Assembly: GCA_963751275.1 (NCBI GenBank)
Contig: CAVVTZ010000011.1
Span: 32,001 to 96,000 of the forward strand
From: an uncultured Gemmatimonadaceae bacterium
GTDB lineage: Bacteria; Gemmatimonadota; Gemmatimonadetes; Gemmatimonadales; Gemmatimonadaceae
Reading direction: 5' to 3'
Length of the DNA: 64,000 nucleotides
Under the pieces are notes generated by a model. It searched no databases. It saw nothing but the letters and a program-made list of their open reading frames with translations, and was not told where the DNA came from. Below are positions 41,846-55,483 of the stretch, piece by piece (position 1 is the stretch's first letter; every line of letters starts with the position of its first letter). The position numbers and the translations under genes were made by a program.

Positions 41846-42690
41846 TGGTGGAGCACGGTCAGCCGAGCCGCACCGCACTCGGCGCGGCGGGTCATCGCGC
41901 GGCTCACCAGGTGCTCGAGGGGGGACGGATCTTCACGGATCCGCTCGCGCTGCGCATCCTGGGTGGGTACGCTGAGGAACTCATCAAGAAAGCGGAGGCC
42001 GAGCCCGAGCGCCGCGGCCTGCGGATCTTCATCGCGATCCGCACGCGGTTCGCGGAGGACGCACTGGCGGTGGCCGTGGCGCGCGGCGTGACTCAGCTCG
42101 TGGTGCTCGGCGCGGGCCTCGACACATACGCCTATCGGTCGCCCCCCGATCCACGGCTGCGCGTGTTCGAGGTCGACCACCCCGCGACGCAGGAGTGGAA
42201 GCGCGAACGCCTCGCCGAGGCGGCGATCGCGGTCCCGAAGACGCTCACCTTTGTGCCGATCGATTTCGAACGGGAGACGCTCGCCGGCGAGTTGGCGGCC
42301 GGAGGATTCGATCCGACGCAGCCGGCCTTCTTCACCTGGCTCGGTGTCGTGCCATACCTCACCGAGCAGGCGGTCGATGCGACACTCTCGTTCATCGCCG
42401 GGCTCCCAGGCGGCGCGCACGTCGTGTTCGACTACGGCAATCCGCCCTCGGCGGAACGCGGCGGCGAGGAGTACGCGGCGCGACATGAGGCGCTCGCGGC
42501 CCGGGTGGCGGCGCTGGGCGAGAGTCTCAAGAGTTATTTCGAGACGGACGCGCTGCACGCGAAGTTGCGCGGATTCGGCTTTCGCGAGATAGAGGATATA
42601 GGGCCGCTCAAGATGCGGGAGCGATACTTCCCGGACCGCGCGGGAGCCCTCACGGACCGTGGAGGGCATGTGGTGCATGCTGCGACCTGA
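41845..42690 (+). CDS. Class I SAM-dependent methyltransferase (LCM/YktD-like)
   Basis: SRTALGAA..RA, RTRFAED, QLVVLGAGLDT, FEVDHPATQ, WLGVVPYL. Confidence 0.88.
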   Translation: MVEHGQPSRTALGAAGHRAAHQVLEGGRIFTDPLALRILGGYAEELIKKAEAEPERRGLRIFIAIRTRFAEDALAVAVARGVTQLVVLGAGLDTYAYRSPPDPRLRVFEVDHPATQEWKRERLAEAAIAVPKTLTFVPIDFERETLAGELAAGGFDPTQPAFFTWLGVVPYLTEQAVDATLSFIAGLPGGAHVVFDYGNPPSAERGGEEYAARHEALAARVAALGESLKSYFETDALHAKLRGFGFREIEDIGPLKMRERYFPDRAGALTDRGGHVVHAAT

Positions 42691-42865
42691 ACGGCGTACT
42701 TAGTCCCCCGAACTCCGTTGCTAGCAGCTGAGGCGTGGTCACGGCTCGGGCGTACTTAGCATTTGCCAAGTACGCCAAAGCCGTGACCACGCCTCAGCTG
42801 CTAACAACGGAGTTCGGGGGACCAATGACGCCGTTCGAGGTTCGAATGACGCCGTTCAGCAGTTC
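42689..42865. repeat. ~150-nt near-perfect palindrome, family A copy 1
   Basis: Arm GTCCCCCGAACTCCGTTGCTAGCAGCTGAGGCGTGGTCACGGCT and its inverted copy; homologous to 51176-51314. Confidence 0.9.
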
Positions 42866-42998: not shown

Positions 42999-44786
42999 AT
43001 GCCCGAACTCGAAGAGAAGTCCGTCGACATCGACACCCCGAAGAAGGATCCGCTGAAGGGCCAGCTCCGCCTGCTCGCGCACGGCGACAATCGCTGGGAC
43101 GACGACGAATATTCCGCCGACGAAGAAGCGGCGATGATCGAGTTGTACGCCGGGACCCTCGCCTCCATCGATGAAGGCGAGATCGTCAAGAGCACGGTCC
43201 TGGAGATCCGCGACAACATGGTCATCCTCGACATCGGCTTCAAGTCCGAGGGCGCGGTGCCGTTGGAGGAGTTCAAGGACTTCCCCGACCTCAAGCCCGG
43301 CGACGAAGTCGAGGTCCTGCTCGAGCATCTCGAGGACAACGAAGGCTCGGTCGTCCTCTCCAAGAAGAAAGCCGACTTCATGCGCGTGTGGGAGAAGATC
43401 CGCATGGCGTACGAGTCGGACCAGCCGGTGGAAGGCACCCTGGTCAAGAAGATCAAGGGCGGCGTGGTCGTGGACCTCATGGGCGTCGACGCGTTCCTCC
43501 CCGGGTCGCAGATCGCGCTCCGCCGCGTGCCGAACATCGACGAGCTCCTCGGCCAGAAGTACGAGTTCAAGATCATCAAGCTCAACAAGCGCCGCCGGAA
43601 CATCGTCGTCTCGCGCCGCGTGATCCTGGAAGTCGAGCGCGCCGGCAAGCGCGAGCGGCTCATGAAGGAGCTGCAGAAGGACCAGATCCGGAAGGGCGTG
43701 GTCAAGAACATCACCGACTTCGGCGCGTTCATCGATCTCGGCGGCGTGGACGGACTCCTCCACATCACCGACATGTCGTGGGGCCGCATCTCGCACCCGT
43801 CGGAGATGGTGCAGATCGGCGCTGAGCTCGAGGTCAAGATCCTGGATATCGATTGGGAGCGCGAGCGCATTTCGCTCGGCCTCAAGCAGCTCCAGAGCTA
43901 TCCGTGGAAGGACGTCGCCGAGAAGTACCCGGTGGGCACACGCGTCCAGGGCAAGGTGGTGTCGATCACGAACTACGGCGCGTTCATCGAGCTCGAGCCT
44001 GGCATCGAGGGGCTCGTGCACATCAGCGAGATGAGCTGGACGCGCAACGTGCGCCACCCGAGCAAGCTCGTGTCGATCGGGGAAGTGATCGAGGCGGTGG
44101 TGCTCAAGGTCGATCCGAACGAGGAGAAGATCTCGCTCGGCATGAAGCAGACCGAGCAGGATCCGTGGGTCGTGCTGCCGTACAAGTACCCGGTGGGCAC
44201 GCGCCTCAACGGCAAGGTGCGCAACCTGACGTCGTTCGGCGCCTTCGTGGAGATCGAGCCGGGCATCGACGGCCTGATTCACATCTCCGACATGAGCTGG
44301 ACCAAGCGCGTCCAGCACCCGTCGGAAGTCGTGAAGAAGGGCGATGCGGTGGATGTCGTCATCCTCAACATCGACGCCGACAACAAGCGGATCTCGCTCG
44401 GCCTCAAGCAGGCCGTGGAGGATCCGTGGCTCAAGATCGGCGAGACCTACCCGGTGGGCACCGATCTGCCGGGCAAGGTCGTTCGCTTGATGGACAAGGG
44501 CGTGGTCGTCGACATCGGCAACGATATCGAAGGCTTCGTGCCGATCTCGCAGTTGAGCGTCGGCAAGCCCGTCACGAATCCGGCGGACGCGGTGTACGAG
44601 ACGATGAATCTCGACCTGCGCATCCTCGAGGTGGACCCGATCCACCGCCGCATCGTGCTCGCCGTCACCAACGTCCCCGAAGACCAGCCGCCGCGCCCGG
44701 AGACGCCATCGAAGGTGATCCCGATGGAGTCCGAGGAAGCGATCGTGGAAGTGCCGGCGGATGCGATGGACCAGATCGACGAGTAA
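42999..44786 (+). CDS. rpsA: 30S ribosomal protein S1
   Basis: Six S1 domains (DIGFKSEG, FLPGSQI, DGLLHITDMSW). Confidence 0.97.
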   Translation: MPELEEKSVDIDTPKKDPLKGQLRLLAHGDNRWDDDEYSADEEAAMIELYAGTLASIDEGEIVKSTVLEIRDNMVILDIGFKSEGAVPLEEFKDFPDLKPGDEVEVLLEHLEDNEGSVVLSKKKADFMRVWEKIRMAYESDQPVEGTLVKKIKGGVVVDLMGVDAFLPGSQIALRRVPNIDELLGQKYEFKIIKLNKRRRNIVVSRRVILEVERAGKRERLMKELQKDQIRKGVVKNITDFGAFIDLGGVDGLLHITDMSWGRISHPSEMVQIGAELEVKILDIDWERERISLGLKQLQSYPWKDVAEKYPVGTRVQGKVVSITNYGAFIELEPGIEGLVHISEMSWTRNVRHPSKLVSIGEVIEAVVLKVDPNEEKISLGMKQTEQDPWVVLPYKYPVGTRLNGKVRNLTSFGAFVEIEPGIDGLIHISDMSWTKRVQHPSEVVKKGDAVDVVILNIDADNKRISLGLKQAVEDPWLKIGETYPVGTDLPGKVVRLMDKGVVVDIGNDIEGFVPISQLSVGKPVTNPADAVYETMNLDLRILEVDPIHRRIVLAVTNVPEDQPPRPETPSKVIPMESEEAIVEVPADAMDQIDE

Positions 44787-44795
44787 CGGAACTTC

Positions 44796-44903
44796 GCGGG
44801 AAGCGGGAAGCGGGAAGCGCCGCGGGACGCGAGAACGAACGAGGAGCCCTCGTCTGTTCTCGCATTCCGCGGCGCTTCCCGCTTCCCGCTTCCCGCTTCC
44901 CGC
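44796..44903. repeat. Palindrome with (GGGAAGC)n heptamer arms
   Basis: GGGAAGC x3, internal stem, GCTTCCC x4. Confidence 0.9.
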
Positions 44904-44957: not shown

Positions 44958-46509
44958 ATGAGCATGCGAGAAAAGCTCGATCTCCTCGAGAAACGCCGCG
45001 CCGAGTCCGAGCTGGGCGGCGGCGCGCAGCGCCTCAAGGCGCAGCACGACAAAGGCAAGCTCTCCGCGCGCGAGCGGCTCGATGTGCTCCTCGATGAAGG
45101 GTCGTTCGTCGAGCTCGACCGCTTCGTCGTCCACCGCTCCTCCGATTTCGGCCTCGAGGACCAGCGCCCCTACGGCGACGGCGTCGTCACCGGCTATGGG
45201 CGCATCGCACGGGCAGCTCGTCTACGTCTTCTCGCAGGACTTCACCGTCTTCGGCGGCTCGCTCTCCGAGTCGCACGCCGAGAAGATCTGCAAGGTGATG
45301 GACCTCGCGGTGCGCAACGGCGCGCCGGTGATCGGGCTCAACGATTCCGGCGGCGCGCGCATCCAGGAGGGCGTCGTGTCGCTCGGCGGCTACGCCGAGA
45401 TCTTCAAGCGCAACACGCTCGCGAGCGGCGTCGTGCCGCAGATCTCGGCGATCCTCGGGCCCTGCGCCGGCGGCGCGGTGTATTCGCCGGCGATCACCGA
45501 CTTCGTGTACATGGTGCGCGGCACGTCGTTCATGTTCGTGACCGGCCCCAACGTGGTGAAGACGGTGACGCATGAGGACGTGACCATGGAGCAGCTCGGC
45601 GGCGCCGATACCCACGCCAGCATGTCGGGCGTCGCGCACTTCGCGCACGATTCGGAGTTCGCCTGCTTGAACGCAGTGCGCGAGATACTGCGGTTCATTC
45701 CTCCGAATAACCTGGCCGAGGCGCCCCGAGGTCCCGGGAGCGATCCGCGTGATCGTCGCGATGAAGCGCTATTGGACATTGTGCCCGATAATGCTGGTAA
45801 GCCGTACGACATGCACGAGGTGCTGCGCCGCGTGGTGGATGACGGCGAGTTCTACGAGGTGCATCGCGACTACGCGCGCAACATTCTCTGCGGCTTCGCG
45901 CATCTCGGCGGGATATCGGTGGGCATCGTGGCGAATCAGCCGGCGGTGCTGGCCGGCGTGCTCGACATCGACGCGAGCGTCAAGGCGGCGCGCTTCATCC
46001 GCTTCTGCGATGCCTTCAACATCCCGATCATCACGTTCGAGGATGTGCCCGGATTCCTGCCGGGGGTCGCGCAGGAGCATCACGGCATCATCCGTCACGG
46101 GGCCAAGCTGCTCTACGCCTACTGCGAGGCGACGGTCCCGAAGCTCACGGTCATCACGCGCAAGGCGTACGGCGGCGCCTACGACGTCATGAGCAGCAAG
46201 CACATCCGCGGTGACTTCAATCTCGCGTGGCCCACCGCCGAGATCGCGGTGATGGGGCCCAAGGGCGCGGTGGAGATCCTCTTCCGCAAGGAGATCGCCG
46301 AGAGCAAGGACCAGGACGCCGCCACCGAACAGAAGATCAACGAGTACCGCGAGAAGTTCGCGCATCCGTACATCGCGGCCGGCCGCGGCTATCTCGATGA
46401 CATCATCGACCCGCGCGAGACGCGGCCGCGCCTGATCGATGCGCTCGAGACGCTGCGTGCCAAGCGCGACCGCAATCCGCCGAAGAAGCATGGCAACATC
46501 CCGCTCTGA
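44958..46509 (+). CDS. pccB: Acyl-CoA (propionyl-CoA) carboxylase beta subunit; frameshift near 45208
   Basis: [43 protein letters not shown]. Confidence 0.93.
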
Positions 46510-47015
46510 TGCCGCGTCCCAGCAGCACGCTCCACATCGGCGACACCGCACCGACCTTCAGGCTCACGGACGCCCAGAACGGGGAACCGACATTGCTCGC
46601 GGAGCTGCTGCGTGAGCGCAGCGGTCTGCTGCTCGTGTTCCATCGCGGCTTCTGGTGACCCAATTGCCGCGGGCAGCTCGGGGAGCTGCGTGACGAATGG
46701 CCGCAGTACGAGCGCGCGACGATCGGCATCGCGGCGGTCCTGCCGCAGGCATGCGATCGCATGGCCGAGGCCATCAGGGAATCGAAGAAGGGCTACCCCT
46801 TCCCGATGCTGTGCGATGAGGATCGCGCCGTGATCAAGAAGTACGGCGTATGGCATCCGGTCGGGATCGACGCGTTCAATACGGCGCACCCCGCGTGCTT
46901 CCTCATCGACGCCAAGCGGAAAGTGCGCTTCAGCTTCGTGGGTCGCACGCAGTTCTCGCGCGCCCCGCTCGAGAAGATCCTCGCGACCGCCCTGGAGCCG
47001 CGCGGTGTTCGATAA
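46509..47015 (+). CDS. AhpC/TSA (peroxiredoxin-like) selenoprotein, 168 aa, Sec at codon 50
   Basis: ATG 46509 reads [19 protein letters not shown]...LLVFHRGFW-TGA(46656)-PNCRGQL and continues in frame into ORF 46761-47015. Confidence 0.85.
46659..46692 (+). promoter_or_regulatory. Candidate bacterial SECIS element
   Basis: Stem GCAGCTC(46673-79)/GAGCTGC(46683-89) with a G-rich apical loop about 22 nt after the UGA. Confidence 0.65.
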
Positions 47016-48516
47016 GGTCCTGATCGCCAACCGCGGAGAGATCGCGCTGCGCATCGTGCGCGCCTGCCAGGAGATGGGGCTGCGGTCGGTGGCGGTGTAC
47101 AGCGAACCCGACGCCGGCGCGCCGCACGTGCGCGAGGCCGACGAAGCGGTGGCCATCGGCCCGGCGTCGTCGAGCGAGAGCTATCTGCGCGCCGACAAAC
47201 TGATCGAGGCGGCGAAGCGCACCGGTGCGGGGGCGATCCACCCGGGCTACGGATTCCTCGCCGAACGCGAGCATTTCGCGCGCGCGGTGCGCGACGCGGG
47301 CCTGGTGTTCGTCGGTCCGCCGCCGGAAGCGATCGCGGCGCTCGGCAGCAAGACGGCGGCGCGCACGCTGGTGACGCAGGCCGGAGTATCCGTCGTGCCC
47401 GGCACGGCGGAACCGCTGCGCGACGCGGCGGAAGCCGCGCGCATCGCGAAGACATTCGGGTACCCCGTGTTGCTGAAGGCGGCGGCGGGCGGCGGAGGGA
47501 AGGGCATGCGCGTCGTGAAGACGGAAGGCGAACTCGCCGGCGCGCTCGACAGCGCGCGGCGCGAGGCGAAGAACGCCTTCGGCGACGATGCGGTGTACGT
47601 CGAGAAATTCATCTCGGGGCCGCGCCACGTGGAGATCCAGGTGCTCGGCGACACGCACGGCACCATGCTGTCACTCGGCGAGCGCGAATGCTCCGTGCAG
47701 CGGCGCCACCAGAAGATGATCGAGGAGGCGCCCAGCGTCGCCGTCACGCCCGAGCTGCGGAAGCGGATGGGCGAGACCGCGGTGAAGGCGGCGCGCGCGG
47801 CGGGTTACGTGAACGCCGGCACGTGCGAGTTCCTGCTCGATCGCGACGGCAATTTCTACTTTCTGGAGATGAACACGCGGCTCCAGGTGGAACATCCGGT
47901 CACCGAACTCGTGACGGGTATCGACATCGTGCAGTGGCAGCTGCGCATCGCGCGCGGCGAGCGGCTGCCCTTCACGCAGGAACAGTTGGCGCCGCGCGGC
48001 TGGGCCATCGAGTGCCGCATCACGAGCGAGGATCCCTCGAACGACTTCCTGCCGTCCACGGGCCGCATCTCGTACTTGCGTCTCCCCGGCGGACCGGGCG
48101 TGCGGTGGGATGGCGGCATCGGCATCGGCACCGAAGTGGGCCTCCATTACGACCCCATGCTCGCCAAGCTCATCGTGTGGGCGCCCACGCGCGATGCCGC
48201 GATCGCGCGCATGCACCGCGCGCTGCTCGAGTTGACGGTGGAAGGCGTCGAGACCTCGCGCGATTTCCATCTGCGCGTGATGGAAGATGACGACTTCCGG
48301 AAGGGCGCGATCGACATCCAGTGGCTCGAGCGCCGCCTCGCTTCGCTCACCGGTGTTGCGCCTCCGCCCGGCGGCGATCTCGCCGCCGCGATCGCCGCCG
48401 CGCTGTTAGCGGAGGAGGAGCGCACGATGCGGCGTATCCCTTCTACGTCCTCATCTCCGGACGCTGGCAGTGGCGCCTGGCAGCTCGCCGCCCGCCGCGA
48501 GGCCCTGCGCGAATGA
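47005..48516 (+). CDS. accC: Biotin carboxylase
   Basis: KVLIANRGEIA, HPGYGFLAE, GGGGKGMR, EMNTRLQVEHPVTE. Confidence 0.95.
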   Translation: MFDKVLIANRGEIALRIVRACQEMGLRSVAVYSEPDAGAPHVREADEAVAIGPASSSESYLRADKLIEAAKRTGAGAIHPGYGFLAEREHFARAVRDAGLVFVGPPPEAIAALGSKTAARTLVTQAGVSVVPGTAEPLRDAAEAARIAKTFGYPVLLKAAAGGGGKGMRVVKTEGELAGALDSARREAKNAFGDDAVYVEKFISGPRHVEIQVLGDTHGTMLSLGERECSVQRRHQKMIEEAPSVAVTPELRKRMGETAVKAARAAGYVNAGTCEFLLDRDGNFYFLEMNTRLQVEHPVTELVTGIDIVQWQLRIARGERLPFTQEQLAPRGWAIECRITSEDPSNDFLPSTGRISYLRLPGGPGVRWDGGIGIGTEVGLHYDPMLAKLIVWAPTRDAAIARMHRALLELTVEGVETSRDFHLRVMEDDDFRKGAIDIQWLERRLASLTGVAPPPGGDLAAAIAAALLAEEERTMRRIPSTSSSPDAGSGAWQLAARREALRE

Positions 48517-48557
48517 GGACCCACCGCCGTTCACCTTCAGTCGTCAGTCGTCAGTCG

Positions 48558-49786
48558 ATGTCCGCCGTCATGGACGTCACCGCCATCGCCGCCGGCGGCG
48601 ACGGCGTCGCTCGCCACGAGGGACTCGTGGTCTTCACACCGCGCACCGCGCCCGGCGACCGCGCGCAGATCGACTTCCTGCCGGGTCCGCGATTCGCGCG
48701 CGGCGCGCTGCGCTCGCTCGAGACACGCGTCGGCCGGATCGCGTGGAGCCGGCCTGCGCGCACTACACGCGCGACAAGTGCGGCGGCTGTCAGATCCAGC
48801 ATCTCGCGTACGACGCGCAGCGCGCCGTGAAGGCGCGCATCGTCAGCGATTCGCTTCAACGCATCGGCCATCGCGACGTGGCGCCGCCGGAAGTGCGCCC
48901 GTCGCCGTCGCCCTGGCGCTACCGCGACAAGCTCACCCTCGCGATGCGCCGCCGTGGCGCGCAGTGGTACGCGGGGCTGCACCCGTACGACGCGCCGGGC
49001 CGGGTGTTCGCGCTGGCCGATTGCCCGATCACCGACGAGCGGGTGCTGGCCGTGTGGCGCGACGTGCTCGCGCACGGCGCCGATCTCCCGGACGCGCTGG
49101 AGCTGCGCGGCGCCGTGCGGCTCGAAGGCGACGCCGCGTCGTTCGCGCTCGAGGGCGGCGTGTCGTGGCCGGCGAGCGAGAAGTTCTTCGCGCGCGTGGC
49201 GTCCATCGCGTCCCTCTGGTGGACGCCGGAGGGCGGAGCGCGGCGCCGGATCGGCCATCGCGGCGCCGATGCGGCGCCAGGCGCATCGTTCGCGCAGGTG
49301 AACGCCGCGCTGGCGCCGGCGCTGCAGCGCCACGCGCTCGAGCGCGCCATGGCGCATCGGCCCGCCACGCTCGTGGATGCCTACGCCGGACTCGGCGACA
49401 CCGCCGCGGGTGCGGCGCAGGCGGGGGTGCGCGTGACGGCGATCGAGCTGGACGAGGACGCCGCCGCGTGGTGCGCGAAGCGTCTCCCGCCGGGCTCGCG
49501 CGTGGTCGCGGCCCGCGTCGAGGACATGCTCGAAGGCGCGCTGCCGGCCGACGTCGTGGTGCTCAACCCGCCGCGCGCCGGCGTGGACGCCGCGGTGACC
49601 GCGCTCCTCGAGACCGGCGCCGGCGCGACGCGCGCCGTGATCTATGTGAGCTGCGATCCCGCGACACTCGCGCGCGACCTCGCGCGCATGCCGCGCTGGC
49701 GCATCGCGTCGCTGGTCTGCTTCGATATGTTCCCGCAGACCGCGCACGTCGAGACCGTGTGCGAACTCGTGCCGGAGGTCGCGTGA
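48558..49786 (+). CDS. RlmD/TrmA-family RNA (m5U) methyltransferase; frameshift near 48727
   Basis: TRAM domain, C..CGGC, SFAQVN, NPPRAG, YVSCDPATLARD, DMFPQTAHVE. Confidence 0.9.
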
Positions 49787-50283
49787 AGTACATCGTGGAC
49801 GTGCGCGGCACGCGGATCACCGTCGATCTCGAGCCCGGCCTCGCGTCGGTGGATGGCGTTCAGTCTCCCGCCGCATTGCGCGCCGTGGAGGGCACGCCGG
49901 TGCGGCTCGTCACGATCGGCACCGCGGTGCACCGCGTGGTGGTGCGCCGCCGCGCCGGCCGCGGCGCCTACACGCTCTGGATCGATGGATTCAGCTATGA
50001 CGTGGAGGCGCTCGACGAGCGCACCCGCACGATCCGCGATCTCACCGCCGCCGCCGCGGGACCCGCCGGCCCCGTGCCGCTGCTCGCGCCGATGCCGGGT
50101 CTCGTCGTCCGCGTCAATGTGAAGGCCGGCGACACCGTGGAGGCCGGCCAGGGGCTCATCGTGATGGAAGCGATGAAGATGGAGAACGAACTCCGCGCGC
50201 AGGGTGCCGGCGTCGTGAAGGCCGTGCGCGTCGCCCCCGGCGATGCGGTGGAAAAGGGCGCCACTCTCGTGGAAATGGAGTGA
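49783..50283 (+). CDS. Biotin carboxyl carrier protein
   Basis: APMPG and EAMKM biotinylation motif. Confidence 0.92.
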   Translation: MKYIVDVRGTRITVDLEPGLASVDGVQSPAALRAVEGTPVRLVTIGTAVHRVVVRRRAGRGAYTLWIDGFSYDVEALDERTRTIRDLTAAAAGPAGPVPLLAPMPGLVVRVNVKAGDTVEAGQGLIVMEAMKMENELRAQGAGVVKAVRVAPGDAVEKGATLVEME

Positions 50284-50380: not shown

Positions 50381-51163
50381 ATGAAGGTCGGACGCACCGC
50401 CGCTGTCGCTCTCGCGCTCACCGTGCTCGCGAGTCTCGCTCCCGCGCAGTCCGCGTTCGGCGGATTCTATGTCGGAGCGACCGCCGGCTATGGCTACGGG
50501 TCGATGAAGACGACGGAGCAGGTGAGTGACACCGGCGGGGACTACTTCGCCGAGTCCAGCCTTGGCGCGATCAACGCGGCCGGCGCGCACAGCGCGAACC
50601 CCGGGAGCGTCACCGGCGGGATCACCGCGGGCTACAGCCTCGTCGCCAAGAACTGGCTGCTCGGCTTCGAAGTGGACTACAGCGCATTGAGCATGAGCAC
50701 GTCGTCGAGCACGACGCAGACCTATCCCTGCTGCGACGCGCAGTTCACCATCGACCAGTCGGTGAAGGCCAGCTCACTCGGCACCGTCCGGCTCCGCTTT
50801 GGCTACGTGGAGCCCCAGTGGCTGTTCTACGGCACCGGCGGGATCACCTTCGGCACGGTGAAGTACACAGAGCACTTCACCGATACGTACGCGGACGCCG
50901 ATGAGTCCGCGTCGAAGTCCTCGGCGCAGACGGGCTGGACGGCCGGCGCCGGCGCCGAGTACCTCCTCGCGCCCGCGAGCAAATGGTCGGTGAAGGCGGA
51001 GTACCTGTACGCCAGCCTCGGGACCATGACCGGCACGAGCAACAGCCTGACCGCGTCTGACGGTGAGGACGGCCGGACTTCCTTCCCGGCCGTGACGTTC
51101 ACGCACACGGCCGCAGTGAGCATGAACCTGATCCGGGTGGGGATCAACTACCACTTTCGGTAG
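50381..51163 (+). CDS. Outer-membrane beta-barrel protein (Omp25/Omp31-like)
   Basis: Signal peptide, GFYVGATAGYG, GWTAGAGAEY, WSVKAEYLY, RVGINYHF. Confidence 0.85.
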   Translation: MKVGRTAAVALALTVLASLAPAQSAFGGFYVGATAGYGYGSMKTTEQVSDTGGDYFAESSLGAINAAGAHSANPGSVTGGITAGYSLVAKNWLLGFEVDYSALSMSTSSSTTQTYPCCDAQFTIDQSVKASSLGTVRLRFGYVEPQWLFYGTGGITFGTVKYTEHFTDTYADADESASKSSAQTGWTAGAGAEYLLAPASKWSVKAEYLYASLGTMTGTSNSLTASDGEDGRTSFPAVTFTHTAAVSMNLIRVGINYHFR

Positions 51164-51175
51164 CCCCGGGGAGTA

Positions 51176-51314
51176 GAACCCCGAACGCCGCTATTCGAAC
51201 CTCGAACCGCGTCATTGGTCCCCCGAACGCCGTTAGTAACGAGGGGTTCGTAGTAACACGAACCCCTCGTTACTAACGGCGTTCGGGGGACCAATCACGC
51301 AGTTCGGGGCGTTC
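51176..51314. repeat. Long palindrome, family A copy 2
   Basis: ATTGGTCCCCCGAACGCCGTTAGTAACGAGGGGTTCGT and its inverted copy. Confidence 0.9.
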
Positions 51315-55332: not shown

Positions 55333-55345
55333 GCTAAGGCGGACA

Positions 55346-55422
55346 AGGGAAACGGGATACGGGAAACGGGAGTGAGTGGTCCGTAGAGACCACACGCTCC
55401 CGTTTCCCGTATCCCGTTTCCC
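55346..55422. repeat. Palindrome with (GGGAWAC)n heptamer arms
   Basis: GGGAAAC-GGGATAC-GGGAAAC-GGGAG, stem-loop, CTCCC-GTTTCCC-GTATCCC-GTTTCCC. Confidence 0.9.
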
Positions 55423-55483
55423 CTGTGGCAGTTGAAGCCGTTCGTTTGACTTCACCATAGCGCCCCGTCAAATTCAAAAAGCC

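Follow-up and report, generated by a model that had tools for sequence, protein, structure and literature searches.

A predicted UxxC selenoprotein encoded between pccB and accC in one clade of Gemmatimonadaceae

Peroxiredoxin-like thiol:disulfide oxidoreductase selenoproteins that carry a UxxC motif in an AhpC/TSA domain (PF00578) were described in PMC1088965 and are tabulated in PMC9312934 and PMC13188914; the latter table gives the family itself as predicted. In a survey of bacterial genomes, reversion of selenocysteine (Sec) to cysteine was the rarer direction of exchange (PMC1794560). As for the effect of selenium on the expression of such genes, selenium shortage truncates the fdhF-Sec mRNA of Treponema primitia near its SECIS element, an effect not seen for the fdhF gene of E. 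coli (PMC3892789). Our literature search, with supplements and most subscription journals outside its scope, turned up no paper that deals with a pccB-accC cluster containing a selenoprotein or with the Gemmatimonadota subfamily described here, and the words "carboxylase" and "Gemmatimon" do not occur in the main text of PMC13188914 or PMC9312934. Large selenoproteome tables in supplements or subscription journals could already list proteins of this type.

The DNA analysed here, referred to as the window, is a stretch of 64,000 nucleotides from an uncultured Gemmatimonadaceae bacterium (contig CAVVTZ010000011.1 of GCA_963751275.1). Its features are collected in Table 1. The initial annotation had proposed that an ATG overlapping the pccB stop opens a frame with a lone TGA at 46656, which runs on to 47015 and overlaps the accC start. 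These coordinates hold: the gene, called X here, starts with ATG at 46509, contains its single in-frame TGA within FHRGFW-U-PNC and ends with TAA at 47013-47015. The Pfam model AhpC-TSA (PF00578) spans the TGA, matching residues 10-141 of X with an E value of 2.3e-23 and 82.9 bits against a gathering cut-off of 26. A 7-bp hairpin with a G-rich loop had also been noted after the TGA, and it is found there, the loop beginning 21 nt past the TGA. The hairpin has seven Watson-Crick pairs, a 3-nt GGG loop and a folding energy of -10.1 kcal/mol, and it satisfies the published bSECIS model (PMC13188914). By itself, this hairpin is weak evidence, because the 81-nt region around it folds like its shuffles (z 0.23) and because a comparable 7-pair Watson-Crick hairpin under the same spacing rule follows 90 of 3660 random TGAs of the window genome (438 of 3660 when G-U pairs are allowed). 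Whole-region folding was dropped as SECIS evidence on the basis of this z score. A genome-wide scan for further selenoproteins by UGA plus hairpin was also rejected; 380 of 2687 sites passed, which is too noisy in DNA of 68% GC.

Table 1. Coordinates of X, its elements and the neighbouring genes in the window.
Feature	Position	Strand	Remarks
rpsA	42999..44786	+	5' of pccB; a 49-bp inverted repeat comes after it
pccB-like acyl-CoA carboxyltransferase	44958..46509	+	PF01039, E 9e-179; one extra base near 45206
TGATG stop-start overlap, pccB to X	46507..46511	+	without Shine-Dalgarno
X, selenoprotein gene (predicted)	46509..47015	+	168 aa; AhpC/TSA (thioredoxin) fold; RGxW-UxxC
Sec codon U50 (predicted)	46656..46658	+	TGA alternating with TGC/TGT among ortholog loci
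Bacterial SECIS apical stem-loop (predicted)	46673..46689	+	7 bp; GGN loop 21 nt past UGA
accC-like biotin carboxylase	47005..48516	+	GTG start 11 nt inside X; weak GGAG upstream
RlmD/TrmA-family RNA methyltransferase	48545..49786	+	start approximate, 5' part apparently frame-shifted; below curated cut-offs
Biotin carboxyl carrier protein (accB-like)	49783..50283	+	GTGA overlap with rlmD

The pccB gene has one extra base near 45206 (45206-45208) relative to relatives and public contigs, so that two frames result; this places the real pccB start at 44958/44964. Because most genomes of the family have a second accC-like gene, the carboxylase cluster may be of the propionyl-CoA type rather than the fatty-acid enzyme. 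Two further observations concern the surroundings of the cluster. A 260-aa ORF at 50381-51163, 3' of accB, has a signal-peptide-like start and no NCBIfam match at E 1e-8; judged by eye, it looks like an outer-membrane beta-barrel protein. In addition, near-perfect intergenic inverted repeats lie at 42689-42836, 44796-44896, 51200-51309 and 55343-55426, with arms of 39-73 nt that are 90-94% complementary. The repeats at 42689 and 51200 have sequence in common, and those at 44796 and 55343 contain short tandem units; our guess is that they are REP- or MITE-like.

We compared X across 53 ortholog loci, namely the window and 52 loci from species-representative genomes, a set that partly overlaps the 151-genome family set used below and was not de-duplicated against it. 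Codon 50 is TGA in 35 loci, TGC in 12 and TGT in 6, so that 35 TGA forms stand against 18 Cys forms; the Cys/TGA alternation to be looked for among homologs is thus present in this column. In the family set, a close ortholog was found in 15 of 151 genomes (E <=2.6e-54, the next best match being 8.9e-18), 12 with TGA and 3 with TGC. All seven pairs of the SECIS stem are intact in 35/35 TGA forms versus 0/18 Cys forms, and the loop reads GGN in each of the 35 TGA forms. Two loci show a compensatory swap from G-C to C-G at a SECIS base pair; the remaining six pairs are invariant, so that the covariation support amounts to one pair. Furthermore, Leu57 and Leu60, both of which lie in the stem, are the sole fixed codons among 39 conserved degenerate sites, at 33/33, where 3 of the 53 loci were excluded for truncation or frameshift. 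In 9/9 pairs of TGA forms, dN was lower than dS on either side of the TGA, and dS over codons 51-61 was 0-0.30 in TGA pairs versus 0.49-1.43 in three Cys pairs. Purifying selection on X persists after conversion to Cys, and X is retained across eight genera. These ortholog statistics are patterns and not P-values, kin being not independent. On this comparison of sequences, the predicted SECIS hairpin is lifted above chance.

Across the window and loci L039-L090, a third cysteine, Cys83 (window codon 46755-46757), is present in 35/35 TGA forms, and 16 of the 18 Cys forms have Trp in this column; Cys83 is a possible extra resolving cysteine. Among the 35 TGA forms, we found no conserved Met that would serve an internal restart after the UGA, the commonest position being shared by 14. 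In two predicted proteins, P0038 and P0145, the Sec column is occupied by Ser or Trp; these are possibly natural variants or a read-through annotation of TGA. Among public runs, 24 DNA runs have shares of <=0.12 and hence represent relatives only; there was no RNA run among those listed. Contigs from three public runs cross the TGA at about 92-93% identity, with 46656-46658 unchanged among the matches listed, an observation not counted as evidence.

Given the alternation, the SECIS pattern and the machinery described next, X is almost certainly a real selenoprotein gene. The view that gene callers had split a 168-aa selenoprotein is in accord with these data, and databases indeed hold fragments of 90-130 aa beside full-length Cys forms. 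That the TGA instead ends translation or stems from faulty sequencing, making X a pseudogene or a split gene, is hardly credible. The assembly does have indel errors (in pccB and selB) and selA was not found in the window genome, but the same TGA recurs in 35/53 loci with a conserved SECIS and with purifying selection on each half, and the absence of selA fits an assembly gap.

A search for selA, selB, selC and selD in the window genome (G000, 83% complete) gave selD adjoining a tRNA-Sec with a TCA anticodon and a selB split by a frameshift (C4:19112-19114), whereas two models detected no selA in this assembly. The split of selB and the extra base in pccB are probably assembly indel errors. 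In the same genus, selA is present in two of three genomes, and for about 40 kb around selA in one of these relatives (G041) we found no syntenic counterpart in G000, as would be the case with a gap in the G000 assembly. Across the family genomes, 12/12 TGA carriers have selB (that of G000 split) and 10/12 have selA, the two without selA being 82-83% complete. Neither selA nor selB was matched in two of the three Cys carriers, whose genomes are 91% and 100% complete; the third, G024, keeps both. In total, selA was found in 107 of 151 family genomes, 11 of which have X and 96 of which do not. The unpublished genome G007 is included among the 15 orthologs and the 12 TGA carriers, and the counts for selA, selB, gaps and the phylum contain it as well; no conclusion hinges on it or on the unpublished G034 (gap counts) and G134 (selA tally). 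As a separate observation, G000 carries a second AhpC/TSA gene with an in-frame TGA (C8:19779-20168), a BCP-type sequence with PGNNTPG-U (TxxU), which is a probable second selenoprotein. One in-frame TGA also occurs in many weaker AhpC/TSA paralogues of the family genomes, and judging from these and from the 107 genomes with selA, the Gemmatimonadaceae look rich in uncatalogued peroxiredoxin-like selenoproteins.

The order pccB-X-accC, whose conservation the initial annotation had left to be checked, is indeed conserved: of the 53 loci, 51 have pccB directly 5' of X and 52 have accC 3' of it, the rest ending at contig ends. Further downstream, rlmD was found in 47/53 loci and accB in 39/53, with 40 loci extending far enough. 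No ortholog locus with flanks has X away from the pccB-accC junction. By record title, 51 of the 52 ortholog records belong to Gemmatimonadaceae or Gemmatimonadota. The remaining one (L090), titled Candidatus Melainabacteria, carries a Gemmatimonadaceae-type pccB-X(Cys)-accC-rlmD block and is probably a misbinned contig. Among 401 genomes of the phylum, the subfamily occurs in 11, all from the window's family, and in 0/307 from the other 11 families. In 132 family genomes, pccB and accC lie on one contig (137 genomes used, counted among the accC matches listed); X is present in 15 of these, and the gap without X is <=200 nt in 97 and 280-7787 nt in 20. Many of the longer gaps (L091-L110, 20 X-less genomes, 0.3-7.8 kb) hold unrelated ORFs on either strand, and the junction therefore tolerates insertions.

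A quick, unrooted tree of joined parts of PccB and AccC (99 rows) groups 41/41 X rows with seven X-less rows in a single clade of 48 rows (SH-aLRT 94). The tree requires a minimum of six changes in X presence, of which the starred branches force only one. Six of the seven X-less clade members have selA, and in none of the seven was an ortholog of X found elsewhere in the genome. The simplest reading of this tree would be one gain of X in one Gemmatimonadaceae clade followed by several losses, and the perfect synteny then counts as about one event. Cys forms occupy two places on the PccB-AccC tree and form one group (88/89) on X's own tree; with the direction taken from nesting, one or two reversions from Sec to Cys would account for them. 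Outside this clade, 80 metagenome loci with distant Cys-form relatives of X had no pccB, accC, accB, rlmD or rpsA in their flanks (up to 3 kb; 38 of the 80 loci are at least 4 kb long), and a plasmid search returned distant relatives only, the best at 34% in an unrelated Brevibacillus context. The RGxWCxxC, A-x-P and Gln motifs recur in the wider relatives. Two of these relatives, P0136 and P0143, are fused to methyl-accepting chemotaxis signalling domains and are candidate thiol-redox chemoreceptors. As relatives in other contexts, these fusions included, share the motifs of X, the motifs predate the carboxylase context.

At the pccB-X junction, stop and start overlap in 51/51 loci (TGATG in 45, TAATG in 6), and an anti-SD duplex of <=-5 kcal/mol before X was found in 0/51. 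Because the overlap is invariant and X has no Shine-Dalgarno of its own, X depends on pccB translation. One explanation of this arrangement is that X serves the acyl-CoA carboxylase as a dedicated redox partner or putative accessory subunit, for instance by holding cysteines of AccC or PccB in the reduced state. In actinobacteria, epsilon-subunit genes take this position beside carboxylase genes. Tight coupling to pccB would fix the stoichiometry of X, and pccB-X overlap in 51/51 loci versus direct pccB-accC overlap in 10 of 59 X-less genomes suggests that selection holds X to pccB translation as it would a partner subunit, which is the strongest argument for this role; moreover, X always lies at this junction, is kept in eight genera under purifying selection even after Cys conversion, and stands between enzymes with conserved cysteines. 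However, those cysteines are equally conserved without X, and no Cys column linked to X was found in the C-terminal 300 aa of PccB or the N-terminal 380 aa of AccC, the parts aligned. Three PccB/AccC columns do separate X-bearing from outside rows; two of them are present in 7/7 X-less clade members, and the three look like clade markers. X has also been lost repeatedly within the clade, its conserved surface motifs are older than the insertion, and any gene that lacks a Shine-Dalgarno requires such an overlap, irrespective of what it encodes. A dedicated partnership is accordingly regarded as unlikely.

The junction with accC differs from that with pccB. The initial annotation had suggested that the overlap of X with both neighbours could tie selenium supply or thiol redox state to carboxylation. 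This suggestion finds no support, since X and accC overlap in only 7/34 Sec forms versus 16/18 Cys forms, the synteny fits a single inherited insertion, and most Sec-using relatives run pccB-accC without X. Among the 34 Sec forms, 7 overlap, 1 lies within 10 nt, 19 lie at 11-50 nt and 7 at more than 50 nt, the range being -19 to +226 nt. A strong Shine-Dalgarno before accC was found in 8/34 Sec forms, 2/18 Cys forms and 8/60 X-less genomes; as it is equally rare without X, its absence is the baseline.

These data bear on the idea that the UGA is a selected selenium sensor, in which scarce Sec-tRNA would make ribosomes stop at codon 50 and leave about 350 nt bare. Transcription or coupled translation of accC-rlmD-accB would then drop, with pccB still made. 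We consider such a sensor quite improbable. Several findings would suit it: the precedent in T. primitia (PMC3892789), the presence of two Rho-like genes in G000 (C9:106815-107879; C9:524704-525950, the latter in pieces and with a match that includes a TGA), the strong accC Shine-Dalgarno in just 8/34 Sec forms with accC within 50 nt of the X stop in 27/34, and a crude scan of the cluster that gave 0 promoter-like sites. The same scan gave no terminator on the + strand, both results being at the level of shuffles. Against it stand the variable spacing to accC and its overlap mainly in Cys forms. Furthermore, the window accC has its own GGAG (-5.6 kcal/mol), and no Rho-loading (rut-like) bias was found after the UGA: the mean C-G skew, a crude proxy, was 0.016 in 32 Sec forms, compared with 0.026 in the pccB tails of Sec forms and 0.029 in 17 Cys forms, and YC was not enriched relative to the pccB tail or the Cys forms. 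E. coli fdhF shows no such effect (PMC3892789), X is missing from 96 of the 107 relatives that have selA, and in G024 a Cys form coexists with selA and selB. The fdhF-Sec gene of T. primitia is alike in that an early Sec codon with a SECIS could uncouple translation from transcription, but there the effect falls on its own mRNA, whereas in X it would putatively hit downstream genes without selenium. Because this precedent cuts both ways, incidental selenium-dependent polarity of X on accC-rlmD-accB is possible by analogy; the sequences examined give no sign of selection for it.

Taken together, X is more likely than not a translationally coupled passenger, co-expressed with its neighbours, rather than a selenium switch, and the operon context of X is probably incidental. 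In this model, X would have been inserted between pccB and accC a single time, in an ancestor shared by one Gemmatimonadaceae clade, and would have taken over the stop-start overlap behind pccB, on which its translation would rely for want of its own Shine-Dalgarno. It would be co-expressed with the housekeeping cluster rpsA-pccB-accC-rlmD-accB, its substrate not being specifically the carboxylase. Several losses and one or two conversions to Cys would have followed. The bolder proposal, that selenium supply sets the balance of carboxylase subunits through the need of accC-rlmD-accB for read-through at UGA50 and/or that X is a bound redox regulator, is doubtful. If true, selenium would control a central-carbon enzyme that contains no selenium, and lineages losing Sec would have escaped by Cys recoding or deletion of X. 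The locus offers a natural series of Sec forms that keep the SECIS intact, Cys forms in which it has decayed, and empty sites. This series is suited to studies of Sec-to-Cys reversion, and the locus also lends itself to testing for polar effects of an internal Sec codon on housekeeping genes further downstream.

As to the activity of X, a structure model (pLDDT 84.8) was made with Cys substituted for Sec. It shows a thioredoxin/peroxiredoxin fold in which residue 50 begins helix 51-62 and Pro128 precedes strand 129-133. The best structural and profile matches are BCP/PrxQ, AhpE and 1-Cys peroxiredoxins (TM about 0.77), followed by ResA. The peroxiredoxin motif PxxxT/SxxC (2cx3, 2ywn, 7kuu) aligns to R46-x-x-x-U50-x-x-C53 of X, so that PxxxT/SxxC(U) is not found in X. 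In three alignments, the distal Arg before the strand, which we take to be the catalytic Arg of peroxiredoxins, corresponds to Pro128 (invariant in 15/15), and this Arg is likewise missing. X thus has UxxC at the thioredoxin active-site position (U50-P-N-C53) and not TxxU. The description "UxxC peroxiredoxin-like" therefore stands for the AhpC/TSA domain and the UxxC motif and fails for the peroxiredoxin catalytic Pro, Thr and Arg. A Sec-dependent peroxidase, that is, a BCP/AhpE-like antioxidant and passenger, would agree with the top fold and profile matches, and Sec could conceivably make up for the missing activating residues. With these three residues replaced, a score of 49 bits against the cut-off of 140 for the curated BCP model and a separate TxxU BCP-type gene in the same genome (C8:19779), we regard this possibility as very unlikely. 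From motif and fold, X is probably an oxidoreductase rather than a peroxidase, with predicted thioredoxin-like disulfide chemistry. SelB bound to the GG loop would, from established knowledge, deliver Sec at UGA50; U50-x-x-C53, at the start of helix 51-62 and facing Pro128, would then reduce or isomerise protein disulfides or other oxidised thiols, as in thioredoxin/TlpA-type proteins and not as in a classical peroxidase.

In comparison with known systems, X shares the fold of BCP/PrxQ, AhpE and Sec-containing peroxiredoxins (PxxxTxxU), and its Cys53 aligns with their peroxidatic Cys, but Pro, Thr and the catalytic Arg are replaced by Arg46, Sec50 and Pro128, respectively. With ResA/TlpA/DsbE (profile match to ResA at E 5e-9), it shares the WCxxC-type motif at a helix N-terminus and the Pro ahead of the next strand; it differs in having no membrane anchor, a longer peroxiredoxin-like insert and Sec, and it scores below the curated cut-offs. 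The best NCBIfam match is NF040769 (SelL-related redox protein; E 2.2e-14), which is confined to residues 13-114 and reaches 53.5 bits against a cut-off of 120. Failing the peroxiredoxin test, X fits the peroxiredoxin-like thiol:disulfide oxidoreductase family with UxxC, in which it was placed by domain and motif from the description of the family (listed representative WP_010940744.1). It resembles that family in the AhpC/TSA domain, in UxxC rather than TxxU, in its Cys homologues and in the in-frame SECIS, and differs by its fixed pccB-accC site and by C83 in the Sec forms. The next-best matches within the family are about 35% identical, and X is a distinct Gemmatimonadaceae subfamily. X accordingly adds a well-supported, lineage-specific member to the selenoproteins, namely a new subfamily within a known family at an unreported genomic place.
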